DNA from: an uncultured Gammaproteobacteria bacterium | GTDB taxonomy: Bacteria > Patescibacteriota > Patescibacteriia > UBA1558 > GWA2-36-10 | DNA length: 64,000 bases | Assembly: GCA_964633905.1 (NCBI GenBank) | Contig: CAZWIT010000001.1 | Coordinates: 65,535-129,534, forward strand | Reading direction: 5' to 3' | In this document: one piece after another, positions 5,296 to 63,850 of the stretch | Layout: each line of letters starts with the position of its first letter | Position numbering within the stretch: the first letter of the stretch is position 1 | Notes under the pieces: generated by a model | What the model saw: the letters and a program-made list of their open reading frames with translations, nothing else | The model's database searches: none | Told to the model about the DNA's origin: nothing | Position numbers and translations under genes: made by a program

Positions 5296-5370
5296 CCGCG
5301 CGTAGCTCAGCTGGACAGAGCACTCTCATTACGAAGAGAGAGGTCGGAGGTTCAAGTCCTTCCGCGTGCC
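5296..5370 (+). tRNA. tRNA, probably Val (anticodon TAC)
   Basis: Cloverleaf: D-arm GCTCAGCTGGACAGAGC, T-arm GGAGGTTCAAGTCCTTC, anticodon region CTCTC-ATTACGA(A)-GAGAG resembling E. coli tRNA-Val(UAC). The anticodon loop appears to be 8 nt and the acceptor stem has a mismatch, so it needs a tRNAscan check. It overlaps a spurious ORF 5250..5876. Confidence 0.6.
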
Positions 5371-5372
5371 CC

Positions 5373-5420
5373 CGGGCTCGCTGGCGTAAAAAAACGTCAG
5401 CGAGCCCTTTATTTTTGACA
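5373..5420 (+). terminator. Rho-independent terminator after the tRNA
   Basis: GGGCTCGCTGGCG-taaaaaaa-CGTCAGCGAGCCC stem followed by TTTATTTTT. Confidence 0.7.
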
Positions 5421-5504
5421 AAAATTTTTAATTATGTTAATTTTGCTTGTCGATTGTTATTTGTAAATTCCTTACTATTAGTCTCAAAACAAGGGAGGGT
5501 AAGC

Positions 5505-5876
5505 ATGTCTTTTGAATTGAAGATGGGCTTGTTTACATTAGCCATACTACTATTTACCTTAGGTTTATTGGTAATTTTGCGTATTAAATATCGGCGCGAT
5601 CGGCGTCCTTTTCGGGCGCGCCAAAGAGCAATGACTTTTACTTCTGCAACTTGGAAAATCTATGAAATCAAGATTTCTAGGATTTTTATTACAGCGACGA
5701 TTCGCTTGGCACATAATCCTAGTTTGCGTTGTGAAGAGTTGGAGTTTGCTTTGGATCATCCTGATACTAAGCTTTTGCGGCAAAAGATGGCTTTAGAACT
5801 AATTAATTTTACACATACCGATGAGGCAGTAAGTAAGGATTTATCCAAGCGCAGTAGCTATCTGCGCGTAGCTTGA
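5505..5876 (+). CDS. Small membrane-anchored basic protein, unknown function (SD-bearing cassette)
   Basis: Strong SD AAGGGAGGG 6 nt before ATG 5505, which is unusual for this genome. One TM helix then an Arg-rich region. Own promoter-like TTGACA(5423)-17-TAATTT and terminator at 5898-5930. The ORF-track ORF 5250..5876 is an artefactual 5' extension through the tRNA. Confidence 0.5.
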   Translation: MSFELKMGLFTLAILLFTLGLLVILRIKYRRDRRPFRARQRAMTFTSATWKIYEIKISRIFITATIRLAHNPSLRCEELEFALDHPDTKLLRQKMALELINFTHTDEAVSKDLSKRSSYLRVA

Positions 5877-5895
5877 TTGTTACTCAATTTTTTGG

Positions 5896-5935
5896 ACCCT
5901 AGTGGTAGTGCTAGGGTTTTTTATTTTAGCTAATA
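5896..5935 (+). terminator. Intrinsic terminator
   Basis: GACCCTAGTGGTAGTGCTAGGGTTTTTTATTTT hairpin plus T-run. Confidence 0.6.
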
Positions 5936-6006
5936 TATTTTGACTGAAAAAATATTTTGTAGTATTATTCACATAATATCAAACAAAATCTTATTATCAA
6001 CAAGTT

Positions 6007-7050
6007 ATGTCAAAACAAGAAAATTCAGCAAAAAAGGAGCGTATTTTAACTGGCATGCGACCAACTGGCAGTCTGCACCTGGGACATTATGTTGGCGCTT
6101 TAGAAAATTGGATTAAATTGCAGAATGAGTATGACTGTCATTTTTTGATTGCTGATTATCAAGCCTTTGGTGATTATGCGGATAATATTTCTAAAATCAG
6201 AGATTCGGTTATCCAAGTAACAATAGATTGGTTGTCAGTTGGTTTGGATCCAAATAAAAATACTTTTGTTATTCAAAGCTATGTGCCAGAACACGCAGAG
6301 CTAGCCATGCTTTTGAGTATGATTACTCCTAGGGTATTAATTGATCGTAATCCAACTTTAAAAGACGAATCAGCTTTACAAAAAGATATTTCTTTAGGTT
6401 TTTATAATTATCCGGCTAGCCAAGCGGCTGATATACTTTTACCAAAAGCAAATTTAGTGCCAGTAGGCGAGGATCAGTTGCCTCACATTGAGCTTACTCG
6501 GGAAATTGCTAGAAGATTTAATCGTATGTACGGCGAAATTTTTCCTTTGCCCAAAGCTTTAGTAGGTAGGGTGCCGCGTTTAATAGGGATTGATGGTAAG
6601 GCTAAGATGAGTAAGAGTTTGGGTAATTGTATTTATTTGTCAGATAGTGCTGATTTGGTCGAGAAAAAAGTCAAAAAAATGTACACTGATCCAACTAGAC
6701 TTAAAGCCACTGATCCAGGTCATATTGAGGGTAATGTAGTTTTTACTTATTTAGACGCTTTTTATCATGACAAAACAGAGCTTGATAATTTAAAGAAAGA
6801 ATATCGGGCTGGTAAGCTAGGCGATGCTCAAGTAAAGAGTCTTTTGACAGGAATATTAAATAATTTTTTGGAGCCAATTAGAGAAAAAAGAGCTTTTTAT
6901 CAAGCTCATCCAGAAATGATTAAAGATGCCTTAATTGAAGGTACGCAAAAAAATAAAAAATTAGCAGCAACTACCATGGCCGAAGTTAAAGAAGCTATGA
7001 AAATAACAGCTTACGAAGACATTAAAAATATTAAAAAAATAATTTTATAA
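6007..7050 (+). CDS. trpS: Tryptophanyl-tRNA synthetase (housekeeping copy)
   Basis: TGSLHLGHYVGAL (HIGH-like) and KMSKSLGN motifs. AT-rich native codon usage. No SD. Confidence 0.95.
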   Translation: MSKQENSAKKERILTGMRPTGSLHLGHYVGALENWIKLQNEYDCHFLIADYQAFGDYADNISKIRDSVIQVTIDWLSVGLDPNKNTFVIQSYVPEHAELAMLLSMITPRVLIDRNPTLKDESALQKDISLGFYNYPASQAADILLPKANLVPVGEDQLPHIELTREIARRFNRMYGEIFPLPKALVGRVPRLIGIDGKAKMSKSLGNCIYLSDSADLVEKKVKKMYTDPTRLKATDPGHIEGNVVFTYLDAFYHDKTELDNLKKEYRAGKLGDAQVKSLLTGILNNFLEPIREKRAFYQAHPEMIKDALIEGTQKNKKLAATTMAEVKEAMKITAYEDIKNIKKIIL

Positions 7051-7059
7051 ATTATAAAA

Positions 7060-7106
7060 AGAGTCCACCTCCGCCGTTTGGCGGATGGCGGACTCTTTTT
7101 TGGTTG
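7060..7106 (+). terminator. Intrinsic terminator after trpS
   Basis: GAGTCCACCTCCGCC-GTTT-GGCGGATGGCGGACTC followed by TTTTTT. Confidence 0.7.
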
Positions 7107-7213
7107 ACATTATTGTCTATTTTTTATAATCTATATTTAGTTTTATATGATCTTTAACATATATATATTTTGTTTTTTGTGGGGCTGGCACAAAAGAGAA
7201 AGGTAGGTGCTCC

Positions 7214-8356
7214 ATGGTTGGTGTAGATAGAGAAAGGTTAATTAATTTATTTTTTGATCTAGTTAGGATAAAAAGTCCTTCTGGCGAAGAGAGGGAGTTA
7301 GCTGTATTTATTTCAAATCTGTTGGAGCAATTGGATTTTTCGGTTACCAGTGATGCTTATGGGAATATTGTAGCCAAGCTTGCAGGCATTGGCGAGTCAA
7401 TAGTATTGTGTAGTCACATGGATACTGTGCCTATTGGTGGTGATTTTATTAGGCCGCAGATTGTTGATGGAAATAAGATTACTAGTGATGGTAATACTAT
7501 TTTAGGTGCGGATAACAAAGACTCGATAGCTGCTATTTTTGAAAGTATTTTTTTGGCTAGAGAAAATAAGTTATCTCATAGGCCAATAGAGCTAGTTTTT
7601 ACTAGGCAGGAAGAGTTGATTTCTCTTGGTGCTAAACAGCTAGATATGTCACTTATTTCTGGAAAGAATTGTATTATTTCAGATAATGCCGCGCCCTATG
7701 GCTTGATTACTTTAGGTGCGCCATATAATTATAGATTTAATATTGTGATCAATGGTAAGCGTTCTCATGTTAAAGAGCCAGAGCGTGGGGTTGATGTTTT
7801 TAAGATTTTGGCTAGGGCGATCGCTGTAGAAGGGTTACCCTTGGGCAGAATTGATGATTGGACTACTTCTAATTTAGCTCAGGGCTTTCTTGGTTTGGAT
7901 GGAGAGATAACTAAGGCAGATTTGAAGGTAGAAAATTTGTCAGACTATCCTAGAAATACTGTGCCAGACATTTGTTGCCTATTTGGAGAATTAAGAAGTT
8001 TAAAAGTTGAATCTTTGAAATTAGCTACAGATAATATTCGTATAGCCTTAGAAAAAGCAACAGCTTTTTATGGTGGCACCATTGATTTCCAGATTAATTC
8101 CGTAGCTGACGGATATTTGTATGATAAAGAAGATCCTCTAGTTGTTGAGATTGTATCCATTTTTAAAGATCAAAATATCGAGCCTCGATTTTTTGAATCA
8201 GTTGGCGGATCTGATGCCAATGTTTTAATTCATAAAGGCCTTAAGACCGTAGTCATTAGTTCGGCACATAGAGATAACCACAAAAAGACAGAATTTGTTT
8301 TGATAGATGAACTTGTATTGTTAGCAGATTTTTATTTGCGCGTAATATGCTCTTAA
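7214..8356 (+). CDS. M20-family metallopeptidase (ArgE/DapE/PepT-like)
   Basis: N-terminal LVRIKSPSGEE…, HMDTVP metal-binding motif, overall M20 architecture. Upstream TTGACA(7104)-TATAAT promoter. Confidence 0.75.
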   Translation: MVGVDRERLINLFFDLVRIKSPSGEERELAVFISNLLEQLDFSVTSDAYGNIVAKLAGIGESIVLCSHMDTVPIGGDFIRPQIVDGNKITSDGNTILGADNKDSIAAIFESIFLARENKLSHRPIELVFTRQEELISLGAKQLDMSLISGKNCIISDNAAPYGLITLGAPYNYRFNIVINGKRSHVKEPERGVDVFKILARAIAVEGLPLGRIDDWTTSNLAQGFLGLDGEITKADLKVENLSDYPRNTVPDICCLFGELRSLKVESLKLATDNIRIALEKATAFYGGTIDFQINSVADGYLYDKEDPLVVEIVSIFKDQNIEPRFFESVGGSDANVLIHKGLKTVVISSAHRDNHKKTEFVLIDELVLLADFYLRVICS

Positions 8357-8413: not shown

Positions 8414-9226
8414 TTAAGTAATTTTATTAATTATTTTTTTTACTTTATTTTTGGAAATTCTTTGTTGCCAGCCTTTGACGTTGATTTCATTATTTTTATT
8501 ATTACCTTCTTTTAGAGAAGTGCTGACAATAACTCCATTAGCATATTGTAATAATGTTTTAATATTTTTATGGTCAGCTCCGCTACCGATAAATATTGGG
8601 AAATTACCAACGCTATTTCTTAATTTTTTTAACTCATCAAGATTAGGCGCTTGGCCAGTCCAATTGCCAGTAATAATTAAAGCATCAGAGCCGCTCTTAA
8701 TTGCCATTTTTGCAGATTGATATAAATTGTATTTTGATAATATTTTTGAGTGCTTAACGTGAATATCGGTAAAAAGTAAAATATTATTTGCTTTTAATTG
8801 TTGGCGGTATTTAACAGCTTGTTTATATACAGGCTCAACTAAACCGCAACTGGTACGAACTTTATCTACAAATACAGGTATTCTAATAAATTTTAAATCT
8901 AAAGTTTTGGCAATGCTTAAGCTTGTTTTATAGTCATTCCACAGGGTGCTAATGCCGATTGGTAATGTGCTTTGTTTTTTAATTTTTTCTCCTAAATAAG
9001 TCATGGCGACAATAGTTTCAGGGTTTACCATTATTTGGTGGGGGATATCGTAATTATTTTCAAAAATAACAGCATCAACTCCACCATCACTAAAGGCTTT
9101 AAGATCACTTAAGGCATTCTGGCTAGCGATTTTAAAACCAGGGAAATCAGGATAAGCTAAAAGTGGGGGAAAATGCAGAGCCCCAATGATAATATTTTTA
9201 TTTTTTTTGAATATTTTTTTTAACAT
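8414..9226 (-). CDS. BtpA/SgcQ-family TIM-barrel protein
   Basis: Start MLKKIFKKNKNIIIGALHFPPLLAYPDFPGFK… is typical of the BtpA family (PF03437). Native AT-rich composition. Confidence 0.75.
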   Translation of the reverse strand: MLKKIFKKNKNIIIGALHFPPLLAYPDFPGFKIASQNALSDLKAFSDGGVDAVIFENNYDIPHQIMVNPETIVAMTYLGEKIKKQSTLPIGISTLWNDYKTSLSIAKTLDLKFIRIPVFVDKVRTSCGLVEPVYKQAVKYRQQLKANNILLFTDIHVKHSKILSKYNLYQSAKMAIKSGSDALIITGNWTGQAPNLDELKKLRNSVGNFPIFIGSGADHKNIKTLLQYANGVIVSTSLKEGNNKNNEINVKGWQQRISKNKVKKIINKIT

Positions 9227-9278
9227 AATTTATTATTTATAATAATAGCATAAAATTTAAAATGTATATATATTTAAA

Positions 9279-9308
9279 TGCGCTAGGCAAGTGTGAACTT
9301 GCCTAGCG
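9279..9308. terminator. Perfect 12-bp stem hairpin between convergent/tandem minus-strand genes
   Basis: GCGCTAGGCAAG-TGTGAA-CTTGCCTAGCGC. Lies just downstream (on the minus strand) of the TrpD-like gene stop. Confidence 0.6.
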
Positions 9309-9323
9309 CATTGTATCACAATC

Positions 9324-10487
9324 TTAATTTGGTAACATCTTAGCTACCAATCTCATCGTTTCAAGGGCTTGGCCACTTTTGAGAGCAGCTTCAGCCATTT
9401 TGAAACCTTCGGCAAAAGATTTGCAATAACCAGCTAGGTAGTAGAGCAAGGAAGCGTTCGCATAGACAGTGCTCATGCGTTCGCCGTTAATTTCTCCAGA
9501 CAGGAGCTGGAGCGAATATTCGCCTTTATTGCCAATCGGGCGCACAGCTTCCAGTGGGATAGGGTGAATACCAAAATTTTCGGCACTAAGCTCGTATTCC
9601 AAAATTTCTTCATTACGCAATTCAGCAACTTGAGTACCACCATGGCACACAGAAGCTTCGTCCATACCAAAGATTCTTGATTCATCAGCAAAACCACGAA
9701 TAAATAGGCCGTGCTTGAGATGTGTTAAGCCTTTCTGATTAAGAATCAAATAAACTTCAGCTACGACGCGAGGCGGGATCAGTTGATTCACGCCCAGAAC
9801 ACGCCTGGTCATGAGTTTAGTGGATATAGGATTAGTGATGGGTCCGATGATGTCATTCATATGGGGTAGTTTAGCAAAGCTATGGGTTTGCAAATGAATC
9901 TTTTTGTAGCGAGTATCAAGTGCTTCCGTATACCCAAAATTATATTTTCTCAATGCTTCCATTACTTTGTCTTTGTCGGCAAAAGTATTAATGCGACAAA
10001 TTTTAGAAACAAAATCAGAACTACCATAAAGACCTTTATCAGCATTGGCAGGGGAACCGTGTTTGCACATCGGTATGCCATCAGAGGCAGCAATAAATGC
10101 TGACACCGTGCTAATATTAGCGGTAACGATCAGATCGCCACCCATGCCGCAATTATCCATTGCAAATTCCATTTCCGGGTTCAAGAATCCAAATTCGGAT
10201 TTAGCAATATCATGTTCAAAAATAGCAGCACAGATACCAGCAATTTGTTCAGCTGGACTCTTGGGCAGTGGATGACCGTGATGTTCTTCAAGACGCTTGT
10301 TCCATTGCCAGTTATAGGTAGCTTGGCTGTGCAGAGCGCAAAGGACAGCCACGCTTTGTATCTGCGCAAGGGCATTACCAGCGCATCCATCTAGCGTGTA
10401 GACACCCAAGGCGTAAGCTTCGTCATATGTCAAAGGAATATTCTGATAAGCATGATCTTTGAGTAGGTGCTTGACATCGATGGGCAT
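9324..10487 (-). CDS. Glycosyltransferase family 3 protein, anthranilate phosphoribosyltransferase (TrpD)-like paralog
   Basis: GMGGDL (the TrpD GTGGD PRPP motif) and CKHGSPANADKG (TrpD KHGNR region). SD AAGGAG 8 nt before ATG (MPIDVKHLL…). Elevated GC (~48%). The track ORF 9324..10532 includes a 5' extension. Confidence 0.7.
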   Translation of the reverse strand: MPIDVKHLLKDHAYQNIPLTYDEAYALGVYTLDGCAGNALAQIQSVAVLCALHSQATYNWQWNKRLEEHHGHPLPKSPAEQIAGICAAIFEHDIAKSEFGFLNPEMEFAMDNCGMGGDLIVTANISTVSAFIAASDGIPMCKHGSPANADKGLYGSSDFVSKICRINTFADKDKVMEALRKYNFGYTEALDTRYKKIHLQTHSFAKLPHMNDIIGPITNPISTKLMTRRVLGVNQLIPPRVVAEVYLILNQKGLTHLKHGLFIRGFADESRIFGMDEASVCHGGTQVAELRNEEILEYELSAENFGIHPIPLEAVRPIGNKGEYSLQLLSGEINGERMSTVYANASLLYYLAGYCKSFAEGFKMAEAALKSGQALETMRLVAKMLPN

Positions 10488-10519
10488 TGTTGGTGCTCCT
10501 TCTTTTAGGCTAGTTGCCT

Positions 10520-11023
10520 TTATCCCAACCACTCTATTAGCTTGTCCATTCCTAGTCTCACGGTATTGTGAATAGATATTATAACCATTTGATGAGATTC
10601 GGAATCTTTATTTCCATTAGGGTCTATTATGTCACTAACATCAGTGGATAATTCCCCGAATAATCTTATTTTATAAAAATATTGGGGGAATTGTTCTTTA
10701 AGTTTAGTCAGTATGTAAGAATCCATGGCCAATATTTGTTCAGCCTGGTGAATTATGTCGTTATCTATCGGAGTAGATTTTTTATCAATAGGTATTTCTA
10801 TACCTATATTATCCAGGTATGGTTTAGCCAAATTATATTCTTCTGAGTAATCACGAAGATTAAGATGTTTTGGTAAGGGTAGACCCATTGTGCCTTGTAA
10901 GCTTCTAGAAACTACACTTATAGTATCTTCTTTGCCTATTTTTTTTATTTCTTTTTGCATACATAATTCAGCAATCACTGAGCGATATATATTGCCTTTG
11001 CAGACTATTAAAATGGTTTTCAT
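10520..11023 (-). CDS. Low-molecular-weight protein tyrosine phosphatase / ArsC-like (CX5R P-loop)
   Basis: VCKGNIYRS P-loop near the N-terminus and a C-terminal DP motif. SD AAGGAGG 8 nt upstream. First gene of a minus-strand operon with the TrpD-like gene. Confidence 0.7.
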   Translation of the reverse strand: MKTILIVCKGNIYRSVIAELCMQKEIKKIGKEDTISVVSRSLQGTMGLPLPKHLNLRDYSEEYNLAKPYLDNIGIEIPIDKKSTPIDNDIIHQAEQILAMDSYILTKLKEQFPQYFYKIRLFGELSTDVSDIIDPNGNKDSESHQMVIISIHNTVRLGMDKLIEWLG

Positions 11024-11149
11024 TTCTTTAGCCTCCTTGTTTTGCGGGAAATTTGTAATATCGTTTTACAACCTAAGCTATAATGTTAAAGAGCAAGTCG
11101 ATAAATTAAACATAAATGTACGAAAAAGTCAATAAAAAAACTTCTTATC

Positions 11150-11425
11150 CTCTTGTTACAAATATAATATTTGTACTAAAAGGACGAGAAGCTTCCCGTG
11201 GTACCACCTTTATTATTTTGATTGTTATGACAAATTAAAAAATCTGTCAGTAAAACAGATCAAAATCACTTTTACCGACTCAAGCCCCATTAGCTTATGC
11301 TTATGGCGACATCAGTTAGCCCATGATTACGGAGGCTGCCGAGTTATCACTAACGCAATAACCATCTCTGCGTGCCCAACCCCGCAATTTGCGGGACACG
11401 CTTCATAGATTTTGTAATTTTCAAA
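11150..11425 (-). ncRNA. Candidate T-box riboswitch leader (minus strand) upstream of the phosphatase/TrpD-like operon
   Basis: The minus-strand RNA contains AAUAAAGGUGGUACCACGGG. This matches the T-box antiterminator consensus AAUUAGGGUGGUACCGCGG at 18/20 positions. It lies in a GC-richer, hairpin-dense ~270-nt leader between a candidate minus-strand promoter (TTGACA at plus 11460-11465 as complement) and the ATG at 11023. A terminator helix could not be folded convincingly by eye. Confidence 0.4.
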
Positions 11426-11480
11426 GTATTAATATTATCTTATATTTTATTATTATTTTTGTCAAGCTTGTTATTAATGC

Positions 11481-11515
11481 CTTGACATAAGCCTTTTTTT
11501 ATGTATAATACCATT
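11481..11515 (+). promoter_or_regulatory. Consensus sigma70 promoter for tRNA-Trp (TTGACA-16-TATAAT)
   Basis: cTTGACAtaagcctttttttatgTATAATacc, ~20 nt upstream of the tRNA 5' end. The minus-strand -35 TTGACA (complement of plus 11460-11465) lies just upstream, ~16 nt away (back-to-back, not overlapping). Confidence 0.6.
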
Positions 11516-11537
11516 ATATTTAGTTCATGTCATTGGT

Positions 11538-11612
11538 GGGCGCGTCGGTTAATTGGTAAACCACTGGTCTCCAAAACCAGGACTGGGGGTTCGAGTCCCT
11601 CCGCGCCTGCCA
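11538..11612 (+). tRNA. tRNA-Trp (anticodon CCA), CCA encoded
   Basis: Acceptor GGGCGCG/CGCGCCU, D-arm GGTTAATTGGTAAAACC, anticodon stem-loop CTGGT-CTCCAAA-ACCAG, T-loop TTCGAGT, discriminator G, 3' CCA. Confidence 0.85.
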
Positions 11613-11634
11613 CCCTAAAATATGGCTCAGATCT

Positions 11635-11660
11635 AGCTCAGATTTGAGCTTTTTATTTTT
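11635..11660 (+). terminator. Intrinsic terminator after tRNA-Trp
   Basis: AGCTCA-GATT-TGAGCT followed by TTTTATTTTT. Confidence 0.6.
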
Positions 11661-11827
11661 GACAATTATTTAGAATTATGGTAATTTCATAGGCAATTTA
11701 AGGTACATTGATAATATAAAGAAAGTACCATTTTCTATACAAAAACTGATATTTTTAGCGATTTTGGAAATATAGTTTTTACTTGTTAACTTCACCACAA
11801 CTAACACAGGAAAACGGAGGTGATGAC

Positions 11828-12862
11828 ATGCAAAATAAGCGTATCCTGACAGGTATGCGTACGACCGGCAGATTGCACCTTGGTCATTTTGTTGGCGCGT
11901 TGCATAGTTGGCTGGAATTGGAAAGAGAATATGAATGTTATTTTTTGTTAGCTGATGTTCAAGCTCTTACTACTCATTTTGATCGCGTGGCTGAGATTGA
12001 GGAATCAGTACGACAAGTGGTCATTGACTGGTTGTCGGTTGGCCTTGATCCCAAGCATTCTGCTTTTGTACTGCAATCAGCAGTGCGGGAATATCCGGAA
12101 CTTACTACCTATTTAGCCTTGCTAACCAGCATGGCTGAGCTAGAGAGAAATCCTACGCTAAAGGACGAGATCAAGCAACACGGCATGTCTTCAGTGAATT
12201 TGGGATTTATGATGTATCCTGTTTCACAGGCAGCTGATATTTTGCTATTCACTCCTGATCCCAGTGATCCGGAAGCTGAACTGCTAGTGCCAGTTGGCGA
12301 AGATCAGGTGCCTCATATTGAAATGAGTCGCGATTTGGCGCGGGCTTTTAATCGCCAATATGGCGATACTTTTGTTTTGCCTAAAGCTAAGGTTGGTTTT
12401 ATTCCGCGTTTGGGTGATTTGAGCGGTGGTCAGAAGAAGATGGGTAAAAGCTATGGTAATGCTATCTACCTATCTGATAATAGTAGCGATGTTTCAGAAA
12501 AAGTTCGTCTGGGTACCACTGATCCTAATAAGGCTAGAAAAAATGATCCGGGTAATCCTGACATTTGTCCAGTTTTTTCTTATCAGCAAATCTTTAATGA
12601 ATCAGAAGAGTTTCAGATTCGTAAGGATTGTATAGCTGGTAGTTTGGGTTGTGTTGATTGTAAGGCCCGCTTGGCTCAATCAATCAACACTTTTCTAGAG
12701 CCAATGCGTGATCGTAGATCAGATGTTGAACAAAAACCCGATATTGTTGCTGAAGCTGTTTGGTCCGGCACCAACCGTGCTTGTGAAATTGGTCAGAGGA
12801 CCATGGAGGAAGTGCGGCGGGTAATGCACCTGGACTACCCAAGTCTTCCCAAGCCGTCCTAA
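11828..12862 (+). CDS. Second tryptophanyl-tRNA synthetase paralog (TrpRS-II), higher GC, KMGKS variant
   Basis: TGRLHLGHFVGAL and KMGKSYGN (KMSKS→KMGKS). ~60% identity to the copy at 6007. RBS GGAGGTGA 5 nt before ATG 11828; the track ORF 11783 is a 5' extension. GC ~45% against ~35% background. Confidence 0.9.
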   Translation: MQNKRILTGMRTTGRLHLGHFVGALHSWLELEREYECYFLLADVQALTTHFDRVAEIEESVRQVVIDWLSVGLDPKHSAFVLQSAVREYPELTTYLALLTSMAELERNPTLKDEIKQHGMSSVNLGFMMYPVSQAADILLFTPDPSDPEAELLVPVGEDQVPHIEMSRDLARAFNRQYGDTFVLPKAKVGFIPRLGDLSGGQKKMGKSYGNAIYLSDNSSDVSEKVRLGTTDPNKARKNDPGNPDICPVFSYQQIFNESEEFQIRKDCIAGSLGCVDCKARLAQSINTFLEPMRDRRSDVEQKPDIVAEAVWSGTNRACEIGQRTMEEVRRVMHLDYPSLPKPS

Positions 12863-12877
12863 GGGAGGTTAGTGGTC

Positions 12878-14281
12878 ATGGAAGAAACCAAAATGTTTTC
12901 CGGTCGATGGCCCCTGGTGGGGGCCAAAGACGACACGATCCGAGCTTTCTTGGATCAGCAGTTTAAGGAAACTATTCGTTGGGGTGAAAGCGAAGTCCTG
13001 GGTTTTCCCAGTATGTCGCCACACCCTTTGGGTTTGGATATTTTGCAACAGGGTTTTCTGTTGCACGCTAACAATATTATGACCCTGACTCGTAGTAGGG
13101 GAGAAAAAGGTTTTGCTGGTTTTCAAAATATCGAGCGTGATTTGATTAATATGGTTGGCAACCTGTTGGGTGCCAAGCAAGTTGACGGCTACGTTACTTC
13201 TGGTGGAACTGAAGCTAATATGATGGGTTTGTGGGTTGGTCGTGAGAAGCTACGGCACACTGTTGTTGATCCGAGTGATAATCGGGTAGCGGTGTTAGCT
13301 TCGTCAGCTTCCCATTATAGTCTGCGTAAGGCTTGTAATCTTTTGGATTTGGGCGAGGGTATTTGGACTCCTTGTGCCAAGCCTTGCTTGGATCCTATTG
13401 GTAATAAGCCGATTAAGCATGTTTTTCATCCGTCAAACAATGGCGGTGGCCTGCATTTCATCAAGTGCGATGAAAGTGGTCGTATCGATGTTGTTGAATT
13501 GGAACGACGCATTTGTCATTTGCGTGAGCATTACGGCATTCGTCGTTTCCTGATTTTTTTGAATGAAGGTACGACTTTGACTGGCGCTATGGACAATGTC
13601 CAAAGCGTCGGCTCTCTAGTTTCTTGTTTGCGTAATGAAGTTTCGCAGCAGTGGGATTTTTATATTCATGTTGACGCTGCTTATGGTGGCTTTGTTTACC
13701 CCTTCTTGCGTGAAACGCAAGACATGAATTGGGGTTTTCGAGTGCCTCAAGTTGATTCTATGACAGTTGATCCGTATAAGATGGGGCAGTGCCCCTTGGC
13801 TGAAGGGATTTTCTTGTGTCGGCGTTCCGAACAAGGTGATGGTCCGCAATGCTATATCGAGCGTTCGGCTCATTATGTTGATGGTGCTCAAGATGATACT
13901 TTGATTGGTTCGCGTGCCGGCGCTTTTGCCGCAGCTTGCTGGGCTGTTTTCCAGCGAGAGGGTTCGAGCGGCTTTGCCGGTATGCATTCCGCATCTTTGC
14001 TGCAACGTGACTATTTGGCTGATCGTTTGGCCAAGTTGTCTTTGCAACCTCAGTGTCATTTGAATATGGTATCTTTCTATTTTCCTCAAGATCTGAATAG
14101 TGCTGTTTGGCGTCGGATGGCTGATTTGGTTACCGACTATCGTTTGATGTGGGATTGGTTTAGCCGTGATCCTGAGGATCCGGAAGATCATCCCCGCAAG
14201 ATCGTCAAGTTTAATATTACTCGTGACGTAAAAAGCGAGTGGATTGATAACTTCATTTCCGATTTGGAGAAGATTTTTTGA
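12878..14281 (+). CDS. PLP-dependent group II amino-acid decarboxylase (aromatic/tyrosine-decarboxylase-like)
   Basis: SGGTEANMMGL (S-G-G-T-E-[AS]-N signature) and TVDPYKMG (PLP-lysine region of MfnA/SPL-like decarboxylases). SD AGGGAGG 9 nt before ATG. GC ~52%. Translationally coupled to the upstream trpS paralog (16 nt gap). Confidence 0.8.
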   Translation: MEETKMFSGRWPLVGAKDDTIRAFLDQQFKETIRWGESEVLGFPSMSPHPLGLDILQQGFLLHANNIMTLTRSRGEKGFAGFQNIERDLINMVGNLLGAKQVDGYVTSGGTEANMMGLWVGREKLRHTVVDPSDNRVAVLASSASHYSLRKACNLLDLGEGIWTPCAKPCLDPIGNKPIKHVFHPSNNGGGLHFIKCDESGRIDVVELERRICHLREHYGIRRFLIFLNEGTTLTGAMDNVQSVGSLVSCLRNEVSQQWDFYIHVDAAYGGFVYPFLRETQDMNWGFRVPQVDSMTVDPYKMGQCPLAEGIFLCRRSEQGDGPQCYIERSAHYVDGAQDDTLIGSRAGAFAAACWAVFQREGSSGFAGMHSASLLQRDYLADRLAKLSLQPQCHLNMVSFYFPQDLNSAVWRRMADLVTDYRLMWDWFSRDPEDPEDHPRKIVKFNITRDVKSEWIDNFISDLEKIF

Positions 14282-15833: not shown

Positions 15834-16532
15834 ATGGAAAAATTTTTAATACAACAAAATTTAGTTTTATTTATTGTTGGCCTAGTTAATTTATTAATGG
15901 GCGTGTTTATTTTTAGTCGCGGAGTAAAGAATAAAATAAATTTGTATTTTAGTTGCATGACTTTGGCTAATTTTTTTTGGTCTTTAAGTTTAATACTTTT
16001 TAATTTAAGTTCCAATCAAGAGACATTGAGATTTTTTGCTAGCCTGCCCTATGCCTTTGCTTTTTTAGTGGTGGTATTTTTGTTTTATTTTTCTATATAT
16101 TTTCCTTATAAAATTTTTAATTTACCAAAAATTTATAAATGGTTATTAAACTTTATTGTGGTTATTGTGTTAGTTTATACTACCGTTTTTTATAGATTGT
16201 TCGTTGTAGAAACAATAATCTGGCCTGGTAATATGGCAAATTTTAATTTATTATCTTATGTAATATACACTTTATTATTAGTTTTATTAATGTTGGCGGC
16301 TCTTATATTTTTATTTTATAAATATCGTTTGGCGGAGGGTTTATTTAAATGGCAATTAAAAGTTGTATTTTGGGGAGTATTTTTAGGTACTTTTTTTGGC
16401 AGTTATTTTAATTTATTCTCAATGTATAATGATGATTTTGATTATGTTCATTTAGGCCCTTTATTTACATTATTTATTAATTTTATAGTTTTAGGTTTTA
16501 TTATAATGCCAAAGGATAAAATAAATAATTAA
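15834..16532 (+). CDS. Stand-alone 7TM sensor-domain membrane protein (paralog 1)
   Basis: 232 aa, all TM. Shares the KYRLAEGLFKWQLK… motif with the HK N-terminus and with the adjacent paralog. Confidence 0.6.
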   Translation: MEKFLIQQNLVLFIVGLVNLLMGVFIFSRGVKNKINLYFSCMTLANFFWSLSLILFNLSSNQETLRFFASLPYAFAFLVVVFLFYFSIYFPYKIFNLPKIYKWLLNFIVVIVLVYTTVFYRLFVVETIIWPGNMANFNLLSYVIYTLLLVLLMLAALIFLFYKYRLAEGLFKWQLKVVFWGVFLGTFFGSYFNLFSMYNDDFDYVHLGPLFTLFINFIVLGFIIMPKDKINN

Positions 16533-16535
16533 TTT

Positions 16536-17237
16536 ATGAATATTTTTTTAACAGTACAAATTATAACATTAACCTTTGCAACTTTAATTAATTTGTTGAT
16601 GAGTATTTTAGTGGCTAAGCGTGGCTTAAAAAATAAAATAAATAGGTATTTTAGCATTGTAACATTTTTTAATTTTTTATGGAGCTTTACAGTAATATGT
16701 GCTTTTTCTGGAGTTGCAATAGAGTTAGTTAATTTTTTTGATAAAACCACTAATTTTCTTAGTATTGGTATTATTTTATCTTTGTTTTATTTTTCTTTAC
16801 ATTTTCCCTATCAAAGAGAAGAAATAGATAAAGTTAAAACTACTATAATTTGGTTATTTACTATTTTATTATCCAGTATAATTTATACTAAGTGGTTTAT
16901 TATTAGTACTGTTTGGAGAATGAGACCATTTGATTATATTTCGTATTTTAATAGATATGGCTATTTTATTTATGTTACTTATTTTTTTATGTTAGCAATT
17001 TGGTCAATTTATTTATTATTTGTTAAATATAAACATGCTGAGGGTTTAGCTAAAAAGCAATTAAAATGGTTAATTTTAAGCATTAGTATTGGCTTATTTG
17101 GTGGCGCCTATTTTAATATATTGTTAAATTACTTAGGAGAATTTAGTTTAGGTTGGCTTGGTCCAATTTTTACTTTATTTATGAACATTACTGTTTTCTA
17201 TTTTATTATATCCTCTAAAGATAAGATTAATGACTAG
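16536..17237 (+). CDS. Stand-alone 7TM sensor-domain membrane protein (paralog 2)
   Basis: 233 aa. KYKHAEGLAKKQLKWL… motif. Tandem to the paralog at 15834. Confidence 0.6.
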   Translation: MNIFLTVQIITLTFATLINLLMSILVAKRGLKNKINRYFSIVTFFNFLWSFTVICAFSGVAIELVNFFDKTTNFLSIGIILSLFYFSLHFPYQREEIDKVKTTIIWLFTILLSSIIYTKWFIISTVWRMRPFDYISYFNRYGYFIYVTYFFMLAIWSIYLLFVKYKHAEGLAKKQLKWLILSISIGLFGGAYFNILLNYLGEFSLGWLGPIFTLFMNITVFYFIISSKDKIND

Positions 17238-37948: not shown

Positions 37949-37963
37949 TTTAAAATAGATATT

Positions 37964-47577: not shown

Positions 47578-47603
47578 TAGTATAGTTATTACAATAATTT
47601 TTC

Positions 47604-47730: not shown

Positions 47731-47754
47731 TCTGCGCTATGACGCAGATTTTTT
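47731..47754 (+). promoter_or_regulatory. L10-leader-like attenuator hairpin immediately upstream of rplJ
   Basis: TCTGCG-CTATGA-CGCAGA + TTTTTT, ending 16 nt before the rplJ ATG inside a ~140-nt 5' UTR. Confidence 0.5.
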
Positions 47755-47769
47755 AATAACAACAATAAT

Positions 47770-57397: not shown

Positions 57398-57472
57398 GGC
57401 CCTATCGTCTAACGGTTAGGACGCGTGGTTCTCAACCATGCAATCAGGGTTCGATTCCCTGTAGGGTCACCA
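57398..57472 (+). tRNA. tRNA-Glu (anticodon CTC), CCA encoded
   Basis: GGCCCTATCGTCTAACGGTTAGGACGCGTGG-TTCTCAA-CCATG…GGTTCGATTCCCTG-TAGGGTC-A-CCA. Similar to E. coli tRNA-Glu. Confidence 0.85.
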
Positions 57473-57473
57473 A

Positions 57474-57550
57474 GGTCGCATGGCTCAGCTGGTTAGAGCG
57501 TCGCATTCACATTGCGAAGGTCCCTGGTTCGAATCCAGGTGCGACCACCA
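57474..57550 (+). tRNA. tRNA-Val (anticodon CAC), CCA encoded
   Basis: Acceptor GGTCGCA/TGCGACC, D-arm GCTCAGCTGGTTAGAGC, anticodon stem-loop TCGCA-TTCACAT-TGCGA, T-loop TTCGAAT. 1-nt spacer from tRNA-Glu. Confidence 0.85.
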
Positions 57551-57565: not shown

Positions 57566-57592
57566 AAAAATCAACCGATCTGGTTGTTTTTT
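57566..57592. terminator. Bidirectional terminator between the tRNAs and the GC-rich cassette
   Basis: Palindromic CAACCGATCTGGTTG flanked by A-run and T-run. A further hairpin AAGACCC…GGGTCTT (57606-57634) and GC-rich hairpin (57652-57685) serve the minus strand. Confidence 0.6.
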
Positions 57593-57700
57593 GGTATAAA
57601 AAACAAGACCCTTATTTATACTCCTTGGGTCTTAGGTAGGAGTTGGTGGTAGGCGGGCCCGAAGCTTGCAGCTTCGAACCCGCCGTACCGGTCGGAGGTG

Positions 57701-58525
57701 CTAGCCGCGCCGCGCCTTGGCAGCCGCGAGCAGCTGGTTGGCGATGACACGGGCCTCGCCGTTCACGGGCTTCAGCGGCTCGTGATCCAGCTTGGCAATG
57801 GCTTCATCCTGCACCGTGAGGTCACGGATGACCTCGTCGATGCTCTCGACGTCCGGGATCGCGATCGCGATCCCCATGCCGCCGTGGTCTCTCATGCAGA
57901 CCAGGCAGAGCCTCCAGACCTTGTCGCCGAGCGGAACCTGGGGCACGCCGTTCTTCCCGAACACGGGAATCCCGGCCTTGCCATCGATGCCGGTGCCCAG
58001 CTTGGTGACCATCTGCAGGGTGTCGGCCTCGTCTTCGCTGCGCTTCGTCTTCATCTGTGAGACGAACTCGCAGACACGGATGAAGACGCGGTCGGACGGG
58101 TAGTCCGGGTTGGTGGCGTAGAAGGCCAGCGCCGCGTTGATGTCCTTGGCGTACTGGTCGTTCTCCATCGCCATCGCCGACTTCTGCTGCTGCAGAGCCT
58201 CGATGCAATCGCGGACCCGGTCGTGGTCATGGTTCATCATGCCCACGGCCTCGTCCTGGTCGGGCCAGATCCGCATGACGAGCATGCGGTAGCCGTCGCC
58301 CGGAACCTGCAGGCCGCGCCGACGGTCGTCGATGACGACCGACAGGGGCTTGGCGGTGCCGATGCCGTGTTCGGCCGCGCCGTCTTGGACGTACACGACG
58401 CCGTAGGCGTTGCGGTACTCGCTGCGGGTGTTGCCGGTGGCGGTGGTCGGAGCGGTGGCGGTGGTCGGAGCGGTGGCGGCGGGAGCAGCGGCCTTGGGGG
58501 CCTTGGTGTTGGTCTTACGAGCCAT
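57701..58525 (-). CDS. Hypothetical 274-aa protein, ~65% GC foreign cassette gene 'B' (Ala/Pro/Thr-rich N-terminal tail)
   Basis: Coherent high-GC3 codon usage on the minus strand. SD AGGAGG 8 nt before ATG. Own consensus promoter P2 and downstream hairpins. The N-terminus MARKTNTKAPKAAAPAATAPTTATAPTTATG… is low-complexity. No motif recognised. Confidence 0.6.
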   Translation of the reverse strand: MARKTNTKAPKAAAPAATAPTTATAPTTATGNTRSEYRNAYGVVYVQDGAAEHGIGTAKPLSVVIDDRRRGLQVPGDGYRMLVMRIWPDQDEAVGMMNHDHDRVRDCIEALQQQKSAMAMENDQYAKDINAALAFYATNPDYPSDRVFIRVCEFVSQMKTKRSEDEADTLQMVTKLGTGIDGKAGIPVFGKNGVPQVPLGDKVWRLCLVCMRDHGGMGIAIAIPDVESIDEVIRDLTVQDEAIAKLDHEPLKPVNGEARVIANQLLAAAKARRG

Positions 58526-58623
58526 CTTGCTTACCTCCTGAAAATTAGAATGTGCACATCCCCTAAAGTGACAACAGTACCAACAGTCAGTACGTTTATT
58601 AGGGGATTTTTCATTATATCATA

Positions 58624-58652
58624 TATACAAATATTTGTCAAGGGTATTGAAA
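58624..58652 (-). promoter_or_regulatory. Promoter P2 (minus): TTGACA-17-TG-n-TATAAT
   Basis: Minus strand TTGACAaatatttgtatatatgaTATAAT. Confidence 0.65.
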
Positions 58653-58713
58653 AGCCCCGGCACTAGGTGCGTCGGGGCTTGGGGCGAAGTGGTACAACAC
58701 AGTCGGCTTGCTA

Positions 58714-59091
58714 CTAGATGTAGCAATTGATCTTGACCCTGGAAATGACTTCTCCAGAGACGCGATCACGAAGTAGTACTTCGTAATTGCCCACCACCAA
58801 GGTGGCTTTGGGATCGTTCATGACTTTAGCCAACAAGCGGCCATTCTTATAGATTTCCATGTAGGCCAGCTTCCTGGCCTGGTTGGATACCATGCAGATG
58901 GGCTTTTCATCAGCCAAGCGGAGGCGGATCGAATCGCCATCGACACAGACGTAGCTAGTATCGATATAGCGCGGGTTGGGCCGAACCAGGATGGTCGCTT
59001 CCCCAGGCTTGGTGATCGGCTGCGAATTGCAGGCGGCAAGCAGAGTCAGCGAAAGAAACAGCAGGCTGGCGATCAGGAAGAACTTACGCAT
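58714..59091 (-). CDS. Putative lipoprotein, GC ~55%, foreign cassette gene 'C'
   Basis: Signal peptide plus lipobox LLAAC. SD AAGGAGG 6 nt before ATG. Own promoter P3. Confidence 0.55.
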   Translation of the reverse strand: MRKFFLIASLLFLSLTLLAACNSQPITKPGEATILVRPNPRYIDTSYVCVDGDSIRLRLADEKPICMVSNQARKLAYMEIYKNGRLLAKVMNDPKATLVVGNYEVLLRDRVSGEVISRVKINCYI

Positions 59092-59143
59092 CTTAACCCT
59101 CCTTGGTTTTTTGCCACTTCAATTGTCCTTAAAGAGCTTATAT

Positions 59144-59172
59144 ATTATATCATATATATTGATTATTGTCAA
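59144..59172 (-). promoter_or_regulatory. Promoter P3 (minus): TTGACA-17-TG-n-TATAAT
   Basis: Minus strand TTGACAataatcaatatatatgaTATAAT. Shares the 14-mer ATATATGATATAAT with P2. Confidence 0.65.
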
Positions 59173-62275: not shown

Positions 62276-62377
62276 GGGAAATATTGTAGTCTTAGCTTAA
62301 CCTATTTTGTTTATTTTTTCAAGCTAAAATATAGACAGTTTATACTCATTTTAAATACAGCTTAAATAAATTTACCT

Positions 62378-62406
62378 TGACAATTGTCAAAAAATAATTT
62401 ATAATA
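62378..62406 (+). promoter_or_regulatory. Consensus promoter TTGACA-17-TATAAT upstream of the tRNA-Lys region (overlapping palindromic TTGACAATTGTCAA)
   Basis: TTGACAattgtcaaaaaataattTATAAT. The palindrome also gives a minus-strand TTGACA for divergent dnaB. Confidence 0.6.
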
Positions 62407-62429
62407 TTTCCGTATTTTTTAATTTTTTT

Positions 62430-62490
62430 GCGCCTAAGCTTAAGTCGGTAGATCCGCCAGCTGGCGGACTATTAAGCAAACGGTCGTAGG
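62430..62490 (+). pseudogene. tRNA-Lys 5' fragment / degenerate duplicate with a palindromic insertion
   Basis: GCGCCTAAGCTTAAGTCGGTAGATCCGCCAGCTGGCGGACTATTAAGCAAACGGTCGTAGG aligns to the first two-thirds of the intact tRNA-Lys 98 nt downstream. The D-stem is disrupted, and the palindrome CCGCCAGCTGGCGG replaces the anticodon-stem 5' side. No T-arm or acceptor 3' strand. Confidence 0.6.
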
Positions 62491-62527
62491 CGTGCATTGA
62501 ACATCAAAATTTATACTTTATTTATAT

Positions 62528-62603
62528 GCGCCTATAGCTCAGTCGGTAGAGCAGTTGCCTTTTAAGCAAACGGTCGTAGGTTCGATTCCTACTGGGCGCA
62601 CCA
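62528..62603 (+). tRNA. tRNA-Lys (anticodon TTT), CCA encoded
   Basis: GCGCCTA-TA-GCTCAGTCGGTAGAGC-A-GTTGC-CTTTTAA-GCAAA-CGGTC-GTAGG-TTCGATT-CCTAC-TGGGCGC-A-CCA. Confidence 0.85.
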
Positions 62604-62731
62604 TTCTTACAGCTTCATGGCTGTTTTTTTATTTATTAAAAATCCTTGACTAAGTATCTTTTTTATTTTATAGTATTTACCTATTTTGTTCCCCCCAGAA
62701 AGTAAAACCCAAAACGAAGGAGCGGATTGCT

Positions 62732-63118
62732 ATGCCAACTGACCTGCTGGATATTTTTCATATTATTAGTAACGGTTGTAAAGTAAAAGTTACTGAAGAA
62801 AAGACTAAAGAGATTAGGAAAAAAATTCGCACACTGGATGATCCAGAACAAATCAGGTCTTGCCTGCGTATTCTCTTGAGCTATTATCCAGAAGAAAGTT
62901 TGATCGAATTTTGTTTGGATAGCTTGTTTATGAATGCTCGTCCTAATTACTTGAGTGGTCCTAAGCATGATATTTGGATCAGAGAAGTGTGTAAATTAGC
63001 TGAAGCCATCAAAGATCTTCGTGTCCCATATTGGGAATTTGTTATGTATAGAAAGGTTAATTTCTATTGTCCGCAATTGGTAGATAAAATCTGGAAAGAT
63101 GGGGTGCCTGCTGGTTAG
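62732..63118 (+). CDS. Hypothetical 128-aa protein (SD-bearing, ~43% GC)
   Basis: Promoter TTGACT-17-TATAGT at ~62647-62675. SD GAAGGAG 9 nt before ATG. No motif recognised. Confidence 0.5.
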   Translation: MPTDLLDIFHIISNGCKVKVTEEKTKEIRKKIRTLDDPEQIRSCLRILLSYYPEESLIEFCLDSLFMNARPNYLSGPKHDIWIREVCKLAEAIKDLRVPYWEFVMYRKVNFYCPQLVDKIWKDGVPAG

Positions 63119-63253
63119 TAGCGCCTAAGGATATGACCCTGTTGTGTTTGAAGCGACAGGGTTTTTATTTGCCTAATTTTTTTTTAGCTTTAAAATTATG
63201 GCGAGTCTTTGTTTCTTTGTCAGCACATCTCTAGACAAGCAGGAGGTTGATCA

Positions 63254-63850
63254 ATGTTTTCCAGTGAAGTACTCAACACCAAGTGGTTGTTTACAAATAT
63301 TTTTGAGTGTTTGCAAATCAAGTTTGATGCACAAGAGATTAGCCTAGATAGGCCGATTCGGGCAGTTATTACTGCTAATAACACAGAACAAAGGCTTGAA
63401 AATCAACGTATGCAATATAATCGTTTTTTGTATCTACGTTTGGCTAAAAAAATATGGATTTTGTGTTTGGGTGCTAATGAAACCGATGATGGTGTTAATT
63501 ATATAGCAGATTTATCTGCTTTGCGTATTTTTGATACCAAATTGCAAGCTATGGAAACTATTGCTGAAATTAAGGCTAGACTTAGGTCTAGTCGCACTTT
63601 TCATTATTCCTTGCTTTGTGCTCGGGCTAGTAATGATTTACTTTTTCCTTTAGAAAGTATGCATTATGAAATGATGCAGGTTTTTTCTGATGTTGATCCA
63701 AATATTTTTTGGGTAGAAGCTCGTCATCGTGATCTTAGTTTTGGTGATAATCAATTTCGTGATCCTCATTTACAAGCTGGTTTTTATAAAGAAAATGCTT
63801 TGACACATTTTGTCAATTTAATGGCTAATGTTTTGGTAACGCCTGACTAA
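63254..63850 (+). CDS. Hypothetical 198-aa protein (SD-bearing)
   Basis: SD AGGAGG 7 nt before ATG. No motif recognised. Confidence 0.5.
   Translation: MFSSEVLNTKWLFTNIFECLQIKFDAQEISLDRPIRAVITANNTEQRLENQRMQYNRFLYLRLAKKIWILCLGANETDDGVNYIADLSALRIFDTKLQAMETIAEIKARLRSSRTFHYSLLCARASNDLLFPLESMHYEMMQVFSDVDPNIFWVEARHRDLSFGDNQFRDPHLQAGFYKENALTHFVNLMANVLVTPD

Follow-up and report, generated by a model that had tools for sequence, protein, structure and literature searches.

Genes in a 64-kb stretch of DNA from an uncultured member of the Patescibacteria (positions 65,535 to 129,534 of contig CAZWIT010000001.1, assembly GCA_964633905.1; hereafter the window) are preceded by two distinct kinds of leader. 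Among the 58 genes that we curated, 47 form a backbone without a Shine-Dalgarno (SD) sequence, and the remaining 11 carry a strong one. With moderate confidence, we read the SD-led minority as a long-resident class of accessory genes with probably functional SDs, whose ribosome would keep the complementary anti-SD and whose deviant G+C content at third codon positions (GC3) would be maintained.

The window is about 33% GC, and nearly all of its genes lie on the plus strand. Searches with its DnaB protein returned only genomes of Patescibacteria/Candidate Phyla Radiation, with the top matches (60-66% identity) in metagenome-assembled genomes of the Patescibacteria group and of Magasanik-, Uhr-, Falkow- and Moranbacteria. 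The comparison set consisted of 80 Patescibacteria DnaB loci (1.3 Mb). Four related loci recur below: L089, which is the same strain as the window; L090 (GCA_964533435.1, CAZHLU010000007.1), with a backbone 95-97.5% identical to the window in amino acids; L087 (GCA_964540095.1), at about 80%; and L093 (GCA_964455165.1), at 59-72%.

Two classes of translation start

SD strength was scored as the duplex energy (dG) of positions -20 to -1 against 5'-ACCUCCUUA-3', at all candidate starts as well as at the selected ones. The energies of the 58 genes were bimodal: 46 fell in the range from +2.0 to -6.3 kcal/mol, and the other 12 reached -8 or lower, eight of them -10 or lower. By chance, -8 is reached by 1.7% of the 1773 ATGs in the window and by 1.4% of the 20-nt windows inside coding sequence, a rate that is the same for backbone and SD-led genes, and the excess of strong SDs is significant (binomial p = 2e-10). 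When the 30 nt upstream of each SD gene were shuffled, p was 0.001-0.06, significant for nearly all. The GGAGG/AGGAG cores end 6-10 nt ahead of the start codon. We considered SDs as a by-product of GC-richer leaders and rejected this on the in-gene rate and the shuffles. The twelfth gene at or below -8, at 51746, has an SD-like motif located within the preceding gene and missing from L093; as the motif is not conserved, it was counted as one expected chance hit.

The backbone class spans positions 237 to 62275. It includes tsf, gap, cysS, trpS, pgk, eno, gpmI, rplJ, rplL, rplU, mraZ and rsmH, as well as ftsL, ftsI, murF, recR, ybaB, dnaB, an RHS-type protein and seven-transmembrane (7TM) kinases. 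Backbone leaders (-20 to -1) are 82% A+T: A accounts for 50-65% of bases from -12 to -3, 76% of the leaders have T at -1, and G stays at or below 15% throughout. In SD leaders, G makes up 50-83% from -12 to -8. GC content upstream of the start is 0.18 in the backbone versus 0.45 in SD genes, and the median minimum free energy of the start region is -3.8 versus -8.8 kcal/mol (p = 3e-4). The minus strand holds 5 of the 11 SD-led genes but only 6 of the 47 backbone genes, an over-representation of the former.

The two classes also differ in coding composition. Median GC3 is 0.37 for SD genes versus 0.25 for the backbone (Mann-Whitney p = 7e-5), and dG correlates with GC3 (Spearman rho -0.48, p = 1.5e-4). 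GC3 reaches 0.33 or more in 8 of the 11 SD genes, and the backbone ranges from 0.14 to 0.34. Codon usage is graded, and in the three GC-richest SD genes it departs strongly from the backbone (CTG 50% versus 4%; TTA 0% versus 54%). The GC outliers of the window lie at 12-14.3 kb (46%) and at 57.6-59.1 kb (up to 76% per 100 nt). Six of the 11 SD genes have no Pfam match and are regarded as ORFans.

An earlier note on this DNA had proposed that the backbone lacks SDs and that the SD-bearing set is compositionally distinct. In the systematic scan, the backbone had no comparable SD fraction (46 of its 47 genes have dG above -6.5), and this result held with each gene credited with its strongest SD at any candidate start within its first 40 codons. 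The SD set is distinct on average in GC3 and in its correlation with dG, and the dichotomy thus stands.

The backbone pattern extends well beyond this genome. Strong SDs precede only 0-15% of genes in most of the 80 DnaB loci, regardless of GC, which shows that SD-less initiation is a lineage-wide Patescibacteria trait and not a peculiarity of the window's host. Across the same loci, GC3 exceeded the locus median by more than 0.1 in 22% of SD genes versus 4% of others (p = 0.002). The few SD genes at the DnaB loci of the closest relatives encode Cys/Trp/Arg-rich hypothetical proteins.

Architecture of the SD-led units

The SD genes are arranged in eight small units. Every unit tested has its own sigma-70-type promoter, of a type that also drives tRNAs, trpS, mraZ, rplJ and rplU, with leaders that measure about 50-140 nt. 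Promoters of the form TTGACA-N17-TGnTATAAT, with a common ATATGATATA stretch, precede the three GC-richest genes. All SDs that had been claimed for the gene at 5505, for the block of phosphatase, TrpD-like, trpS2 and decarboxylase genes, and for those at 62732 and 63254 score at or below -8 kcal/mol. That list was incomplete, and we add the GC-rich gene starting at 47491 on the minus strand, the M20 peptidase gene at 7214 and a gene starting past the window end.

Unit 1 (5415-5876, plus strand) has the promoter TTGACA-N17-TAATTT at 5415-5443 and the SD GGGAGGG at 5493-5499 (dG -11.8). Its gene, hyp123 (5505-5876, GC3 0.36), encodes a 123-aa ORFan product with an N-terminal transmembrane segment and no Pfam match. 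Unit 2 (7104-8356, plus strand) encodes an M20-family peptidase (CDS 7214-8356, GC3 0.27), with a promoter at 7104-7132 and the SD-like AAGGTAGGTG at 7200-7209 (dG -9.1); the orthologue in L087 carries the SD CCGGAGGT (dG -10.2). Unit 3 (9324-11465, minus strand) is an operon with a candidate T-box leader (11177-11415) behind a promoter at 11437-11465, and encodes a low-molecular-weight protein tyrosine phosphatase (LMW-PTP; CDS 10520-11023, SD AAGGAGG at 11032-11038) and a TrpD-like protein (CDS 9324-10487, SD GAAGGAG at 10496-10502). Unit 4 (11659-14281, plus strand, GC 0.44-0.46) has a promoter at 11659-11687 and a leader of about 140 nt, followed by a second tryptophanyl-tRNA synthetase (TrpRS) gene, trpS2 (CDS 11828-12862, SD GGAGGTGAT at 11816-11824), and a pyridoxal phosphate (PLP)-dependent decarboxylase gene (CDS 12878-14281, SD GGGAGGT at 12863-12869).

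Unit 5 (47258-47577, minus strand) lies between mltG and rplJ. It consists of the promoter TTGACA-N17-TGATATAGT at 47549-47577, the SD AGGAGG at 47500-47505, a GTG-started CDS of 77 aa at 47258-47491 (GC3 0.68, dG -10.2) and a terminator. A distant SD-led homologue occurs in L094, a contig of small co-directional open reading frames (ORFs), two of which match PHROG families. At 46168-47770, rplJ-rplL thus follows mltG and the 77-aa gene instead of rplK-rplA.

Units 6 and 7 hold the GC-rich pair at 57.7-59.1 kb. Unit 6 (57590-58641, minus strand) has the promoter TTGACA-N17-TGATATAAT at 58613-58641, a structured 5' untranslated region (UTR) of about 70 nt and the SD AGGAGGT at 58533-58539, ahead of h274GC (57701-58525, minus strand; 274 aa, GC 0.67, GC3 0.90). 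Directly behind the stop codon, its 3'UTR (57590-57700, minus strand) has CACCUCC, and two hairpins and a U-tract come next. The anti-SD-like CACCUCC, which is CCCUCC in L093, could pair with the gene's own SD. Near its N-terminus, the 274-aa protein has a Pro/Thr/Ala-rich stretch encoded by three 18-nt tandem repeats at 58435-58488 (minus-strand coding), and the length of this stretch varies among homologues. Unit 7 (58660-59172, minus strand) has the promoter TTGACA-N17-TGATATAAT at 59144-59172 and the SD AAGGAGGG at 59097-59104, followed by lipo125GC (58714-59091, minus strand), a lipoprotein-like gene of 125 aa with a LAAC lipobox and GC3 0.70, and a terminator hairpin at about 58660-58700. 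The earlier note had counted three genes here, A, B and C, after the tRNA-Glu/Val genes. That the locus is SD-led holds, but the genes are in fact the two on the minus strand: plus-strand ORFs over 57.7-59.1 kb are antisense shadows, as substitutions in the minus frame follow codon position 3 > 1 > 2, and the plus-strand GGAGGTG at 57692-57698 is the reverse complement of the CACCUCC after the minus-strand stop. Public gene calls are similarly affected, with a plus-strand gene placed over the minus-strand GC-rich gene in L090 and a GC-rich gene left uncalled in L093.

Unit 8 (62646-64000, plus strand) starts with a promoter at 62646-62674 and contains h128 (CDS 62732-63118, 128 aa, SD AAGGAG at 62717-62722) and h198 (CDS 63254-63850, 198 aa, SD AGGAGGT at 63241-63247). 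It ends with the promoter of a third SD-led gene, h135 (135 aa), whose GGAGG begins at the last bases of the window and whose start beyond the window end is shown by L089.

Searches for the origin of the ORFans yielded little. They matched neither PHROGs nor PADLOC, and among the SD-led proteins only LMW-PTP matched a PHROG, with function unassigned. No viral contigs carrying h274GC or h198 were found. A donor search with h274GC across 5.8 billion proteins returned only two close homologues and no donor, an exhaustive profile search with h274 returned eight representatives among 1.84 billion proteins and again no donor, and JGI metagenomes gave no match. An AlphaFold2 model of h274GC built from a three-sequence alignment was unusable (pLDDT 33).

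Apart from the SD units, two gene runs, at 15834-17237 and 37409-38885, are very AT-rich (GC 0.23-0.27). One consists of paired paralogous 7TM proteins, and the other of small ORFs, perhaps immunity-type genes, directly 3' of the 2065-aa RHS-type protein.

Conservation of the SD-led genes in relatives

Comparative analyses showed that the SD genes and their SDs recur at the same loci in related lineages. In L090, which shares rplU, recR, ybaB and dnaB with the window at 95-97.5% identity, lipo125GC, h274GC (partial), h128, h198 and h135 were found at the same loci at 76-84% identity; lipo125GC, h128, h198 and h135 keep their SDs, that of lipo125GC being identical. Two more SD-led GC-rich genes occur elsewhere in L090. 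L087 is syntenic with the window from PSP1 to the 7TM kinases (gap, cysS and trpS 80-87% identical) and keeps the order BtpA, TrpD-like, candidate T-box, tRNA-Trp, trpS2 and decarboxylase. SDs on trpS2, the decarboxylase gene and the M20 gene are retained there together with the GC excess, and 52-77% of four-fold degenerate (4-fold) sites in the backbone differ between the two, which is saturation.

In L093, two GC-rich genes (GC3 0.72 and 0.75, with neighbours at 0.27-0.41) lie between rplU and tRNA-Val/tRNA-Glu/murF, each with a GGAGG-type SD and a TTGACA-N17 promoter, ending in TGATATAAT for the first and TTATAAT for the second. The second is a member of the h274 family (32% identity), and homology between lipo125GC and its positional analogue in L093 (SD, GC3 0.72) was undetectable. 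Homologues of h274 were found at the same locus in L081, L082, L083, L090 and L093, and the SD of the family is kept in L082 and L093. In L082 and L083, which come from other samples, the promoter, 5'UTR, SD and 100-nt 3'UTR are more conserved than the coding sequence; for the 3'UTR this was observed across the window, L082, L083 and L093.

In total, SD cores at the right spacing were kept in eight genes across two to four lineages, with changes in the flanking bases. The shared loci, SDs, promoters and GC excess in L090, L087 and L093 contradict a reading of the earlier note's acquired genes as recent imports with donor signals. The other possibility that the note offered, a need for SD-dependent initiation in a host that starts most genes without it, fits better than donor relics.

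An independent Logan assembly has the same window junctions, and together with the contigs from other samples this excludes a private chimera. At the end of the L090 contig (1-195), the sequence switches within a GATCGCGATC-rich stretch from an h274 homologue to a GC-rich frame resembling short-chain dehydrogenases, which is probably a chimeric join.

Evolutionary rates and maintained composition

Between the window and L090, the synonymous rate (dS) was 0.47-0.96 for SD genes and 0.17-1.15 for the backbone, and the ratio of nonsynonymous to synonymous rates (dN/dS) was 0.12-0.23 and 0.01-0.07, respectively. A dS like that of the backbone, combined with dN/dS of 0.12-0.23, indicates that the SD genes are real, constrained and faster-evolving, and that they have co-diverged with the genome.

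The direction of synonymous change differs sharply between the classes. Among 4-fold sites that are G or C in the window, 57% are A or T in L090 for the backbone, 15% for lipo125GC and only 1% for h274GC, and changes between G and C make up 2% in the backbone, 12% in lipo125GC and 22% in h274GC. Among the h274GC sequences of the window, L082 and L083, 75% of the 4-fold differences are between G and C. The Trp module, compared with L087, shows a weaker but lasting GC excess. The GC-rich codon usage, at least of the pair at 57.7-59.1 kb, therefore appears to be actively maintained and not decaying. Either selection or biased conversion would hold synonymous G and C, or a GC-rich pool would supply the alleles, and ordinary amelioration corresponds to neither.

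SD units next to tRNA genes

Five tRNAs were found in an Rfam scan of the window, with no other family at gathering score, and at all four tRNA loci an SD gene is the downstream neighbour (hypergeometric p ~0.001). The first tRNA (5295-5373, plus strand; Rfam tRNA 42 bits), directly upstream of unit 1, had been called tRNA-Val in the earlier note; its anticodon loop has 8 nt, and ARAGORN reports 'tacg' and assigns no amino acid. This tRNA and hyp123 are both missing in the syntenic L087, which has an aminotransferase gene instead. tRNA-Trp(CCA) (11482-11612, plus strand) has its own promoter and is the conserved first element of the trpS2 module. The pair of tRNA-Glu(CUC) and tRNA-Val(CAC) (57398-57550, plus strand) abuts the 3' end of unit 6 and occupies the same place in L081 and L093, and tRNA-Lys(UUU) (62528-62603, plus strand) lies directly upstream of unit 8. 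A degenerate tRNA-Lys-like copy is located at 62430-62500 (plus strand), between a promoter (62377-62405) and the intact gene, with which it shares 19 identical anticodon-arm bases and part of the 5' end.

The adjacency that the earlier note had stressed is thus complete at the tRNA loci, but SD genes are not confined to them, since those at 47491 and 7214 in the window, and h242 and the HATPase gene in L090, lie away from tRNAs. Recent islands integrated at tRNAs, with donor SDs and donor composition persisting as neutral relics, would account for this adjacency, for the GC3 excess and foreign codon usage, for the ORFan status and for the absence of hyp123 and LMW-PTP from L087, the only genes of the units missing there, and islands are common in Patescibacteria (PMC12455944). 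Yet no integrase domain was found in SD-led proteins (Pfam, PHROGs), and neither blastn-short searches with each tRNA nor a repeat search revealed a tRNA-derived direct repeat or attachment (att) site, the sole tRNA-like copy lying upstream of tRNA-Lys. The promoters are native in style. The empty-site test was negative, with units 3, 4, 6, 7 and 8 present in L090, L087 and L093 with the same genes and SDs at the same loci, dS equals that of the backbone with no synonymous drift to A/T, and the SDs are retained across saturated divergence. Recent islands are therefore largely refuted for these five units and unlikely overall. Proximity to tRNAs does not mark an island here; most simply, the few gaps between long operons house tRNAs and small independent SD units alike.

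A tryptophan-related module with a probable T-box

Units 3 and 4 belong to a conserved Patescibacteria module of tRNA-Trp, a second TrpRS, the PLP-dependent decarboxylase, the TrpD-like protein of phosphoribosyltransferase fold and BtpA, located at 8414-14281 in the window, 7083-12482 in L087 and 9186-15107 in L084. The second TrpRS is 47% identical to the native trpS product (gene at 6007), and its family is Patescibacterial (a subfamily with 60-69% identity). tRNA-Trp stands ahead of trpS2 in L087 and L084 as well, and the SD and GC excess of unit 4 are kept in both. In the more distant L084 (49% GC), the module matches genome composition, and a Trp-repressor gene lies near it. Possible roles would be Trp-related salvage or synthesis of a tryptamine-type product.

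The candidate T-box leader scored 58 bits against RF00230 (E 7e-12), below the gathering score of 93. Present are the GGUGGUACCACG box and a terminator with U7; Stem I is unusually short, and its 3' internal loop contains a UGG that probably occupies the specifier position. Both this leader and the gene for the TrpD-like protein are also conserved in L087 (leader at about 9290-9500, minus strand), which lacks the phosphatase gene. Within the library of papers searched, none paired T-box riboswitches with the Candidate Phyla Radiation.

Interpretation

According to the reading that we favour, core genes would start without SD pairing from short, unstructured A/U-rich leaders. The minority would consist of self-contained units, each with a consensus sigma-70 promoter, a leader of about 50-140 nt, a GGAGG and a terminator, encoding lineage-restricted, fast-evolving accessory proteins at operon junctions, often just after tRNAs. 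These units most likely entered the lineage by horizontal transfer, yet would be long-standing residents. Judging from their conservation, the SDs would be functional and held by selection, the GC-richer and more structured initiation regions being presumably unable to use the A/U-rich route, and the ribosome would retain an anti-SD that is usable yet ignored by most genes of the organism. The retention of SD cores across saturated divergence while their flanks change argues for selection, which is why a retained anti-SD in the 16S rRNA is predicted. We know of no function of an SD-type motif other than pairing with the 16S tail. The idea that any long or structured leader needs an SD was rejected: rplJ, rplU, mraZ and trpS have promoters and leaders without one, so that an SD is not a mere consequence of having a leader.

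Several points weigh against the reading of a resident, functional SD class. Three SD genes, those for LMW-PTP, h198 and the M20 peptidase, have backbone-like GC3 (0.24-0.27), so GC-driven structure is not the sole reason for an SD. They also limit the view of the earlier note that SD presence separates acquired from backbone genes: the minority is discrete, GC-richer and lineage-restricted, but these three are native in composition. rplJ and rplU have long, structured leaders without SDs, and the starts of four ORFans rest solely on the architecture of promoter, SD, ORF and terminator. An earlier horizontal origin is plausible from composition, ORFan status, one weak phage-like homologue and the frequency of islands in the phylum. 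No 16S rRNA or 3' end of it was found in the window (Rfam) or in 93 loci (motif scans), and about half of the Parcubacteria are reported to be without an anti-SD (PMC9297842). rpsU, rpsR and rpsF were likewise found neither in the window nor in the 93 loci.

A second possibility is that the SD genes form a translationally insulated regulon under a post-transcriptional switch, read when an anti-SD becomes conditionally available, as in Flavobacteriia, and maybe also dependent on the decoding of rare G/C-ending codons. It would explain why SD and GC3 have both long been maintained in the same genes, why the strongest possible promoters are coupled with atypical codons, why 5' and 3'UTR structures are more conserved than the coding sequence and why four lineages have kept a CCUCC-containing motif directly behind the h274-family stop codon. 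The SD set is, however, heterogeneous in composition and function, and the idea is purely inferential. That tRNA-Glu(CUC) and tRNA-Val(CAC) serve the codons of the adjacent GC-rich genes is unconvincing, as they poorly match the dominant codons (GTC > GTG; GAG only 58%). We regard such a regulon as doubtful. Similarly speculative is a second translation channel, in which SD-dependent initiation, selected G/C-ending codons and UTR structures would be reserved for strongly promoted accessory genes, perhaps for host interaction.

Recombination hot spots, where GC-biased gene conversion lifts GC3 and SDs are a side effect or come from an external GC-rich allele pool, would agree with flanks more conserved than the coding sequence, with 4-fold changes between G and C roughly 10 times those of the backbone and with high protein divergence. 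Composition nevertheless fails to explain the SDs, given the 1.4% in-gene rate and the significant shuffles, dS is no higher than in the backbone, and raising GC3 to 0.90 over a 0.25 background would be an extreme outcome of gene conversion in bacteria, which makes this explanation very unlikely. An artefact of chimeric joins, contamination or mis-called starts, as might be suspected from the sharp boundaries between 67% and 33% GC and from the chimeric-looking contig end of L090, is scarcely credible, because the junctions recur in the Logan assembly and in contigs of other samples and assemblies, AT-rich native promoters and UTRs are contiguous with GC-rich coding sequences, and the backbone result is robust to taking the best SD in the first 40 codons.

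A large part of bacterial diversity belongs to the Patescibacteria, in which translation start is hardly known. Here, one genome presents a clean two-class system, in which presence or absence of an SD would serve as a sequence-only pointer to accessory, fast-evolving genes, and from which a sharp prediction follows: the 16S tail should keep CCUCC though core genes ignore it. Gene finders trained on one start model will mis-call the other class. More surprising is the persistence of GC3 at 0.90 in a 33% GC genome while neutral sites turned over, which contradicts usual amelioration and points to selection or biased conversion acting on synonymous sites in a streamlined symbiont. If a second translation channel is real, it would allow separate control of the genes that use it, comparable to bS21-lacking ribosomes in Flavobacteriia or to bldA, which exerts rare-codon control in Streptomyces.

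Comparison with known systems

SD-poor genomes with a small SD-led subset are already known, and the backbone half of our result fits a known lineage trait. SD-poor translation in Flavobacterium johnsoniae and other Bacteroidota was reportedly described by Jha et al. in 2021 (NAR), Baez et al. in 2019 and McNutt et al. in 2023. In Flavobacteriia, bS21, together with bS18 and bS6, keeps the 16S tail sequestered, and ribosomes without bS21 prefer mRNAs with an SD. The window resembles this system in its majority of SD-less genes, whose leaders are A-rich and unstructured with base preferences at particular positions, and in the few strong SDs that remain; an anti-SD would likewise have to be present and little used. 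It differs in phylum and in the SD-led genes, since there the known one is the autoregulated rpsU and here they are accessory or ORFan genes with deviant, maintained GC3. A sequestered 16S tail would be conjecture for the window.

The amelioration model of horizontally transferred genes is said to go back to Lawrence and Ochman in 1997. The gradation of the SD genes from GC3 0.90 to native values is like that model, and the near absence of G/C-to-A/T change in the most deviant gene, while 57% of backbone 4-fold sites changed, is its opposite. Like tRNA-associated islands, the SD units have atypical composition, ORFans and a position directly 3' of tRNAs, but unlike them they have no integrase or att site, comprise one to three genes, use native promoters and co-diverge in relatives. 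Genomic islands and transferred genes account for up to 13% of genome length in Patescibacteria and come mostly from other Patescibacteria (PMC12455944).

Another parallel lies within the same superphylum. According to the one paper on the subject that was found, a CCTCCT anti-SD is detectable in only 48% of Parcubacteria 16S genes, and its loss overlaps the group lacking uL1 (Tsurumaki et al. 2022, RNA 28:1041, PMC9297842). The missing rplK-rplA upstream of rplJ in the window, a further likeness to those Parcubacteria, may bear on this reported overlap, and SD-less core genes would be expected in such a lineage. That study covers the rRNA motif only, and not per-gene SD usage or a conserved SD-bearing minority. 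The conservation of SDs in the window argues that its lineage belongs to the half of the Parcubacteria that keep the anti-SD.

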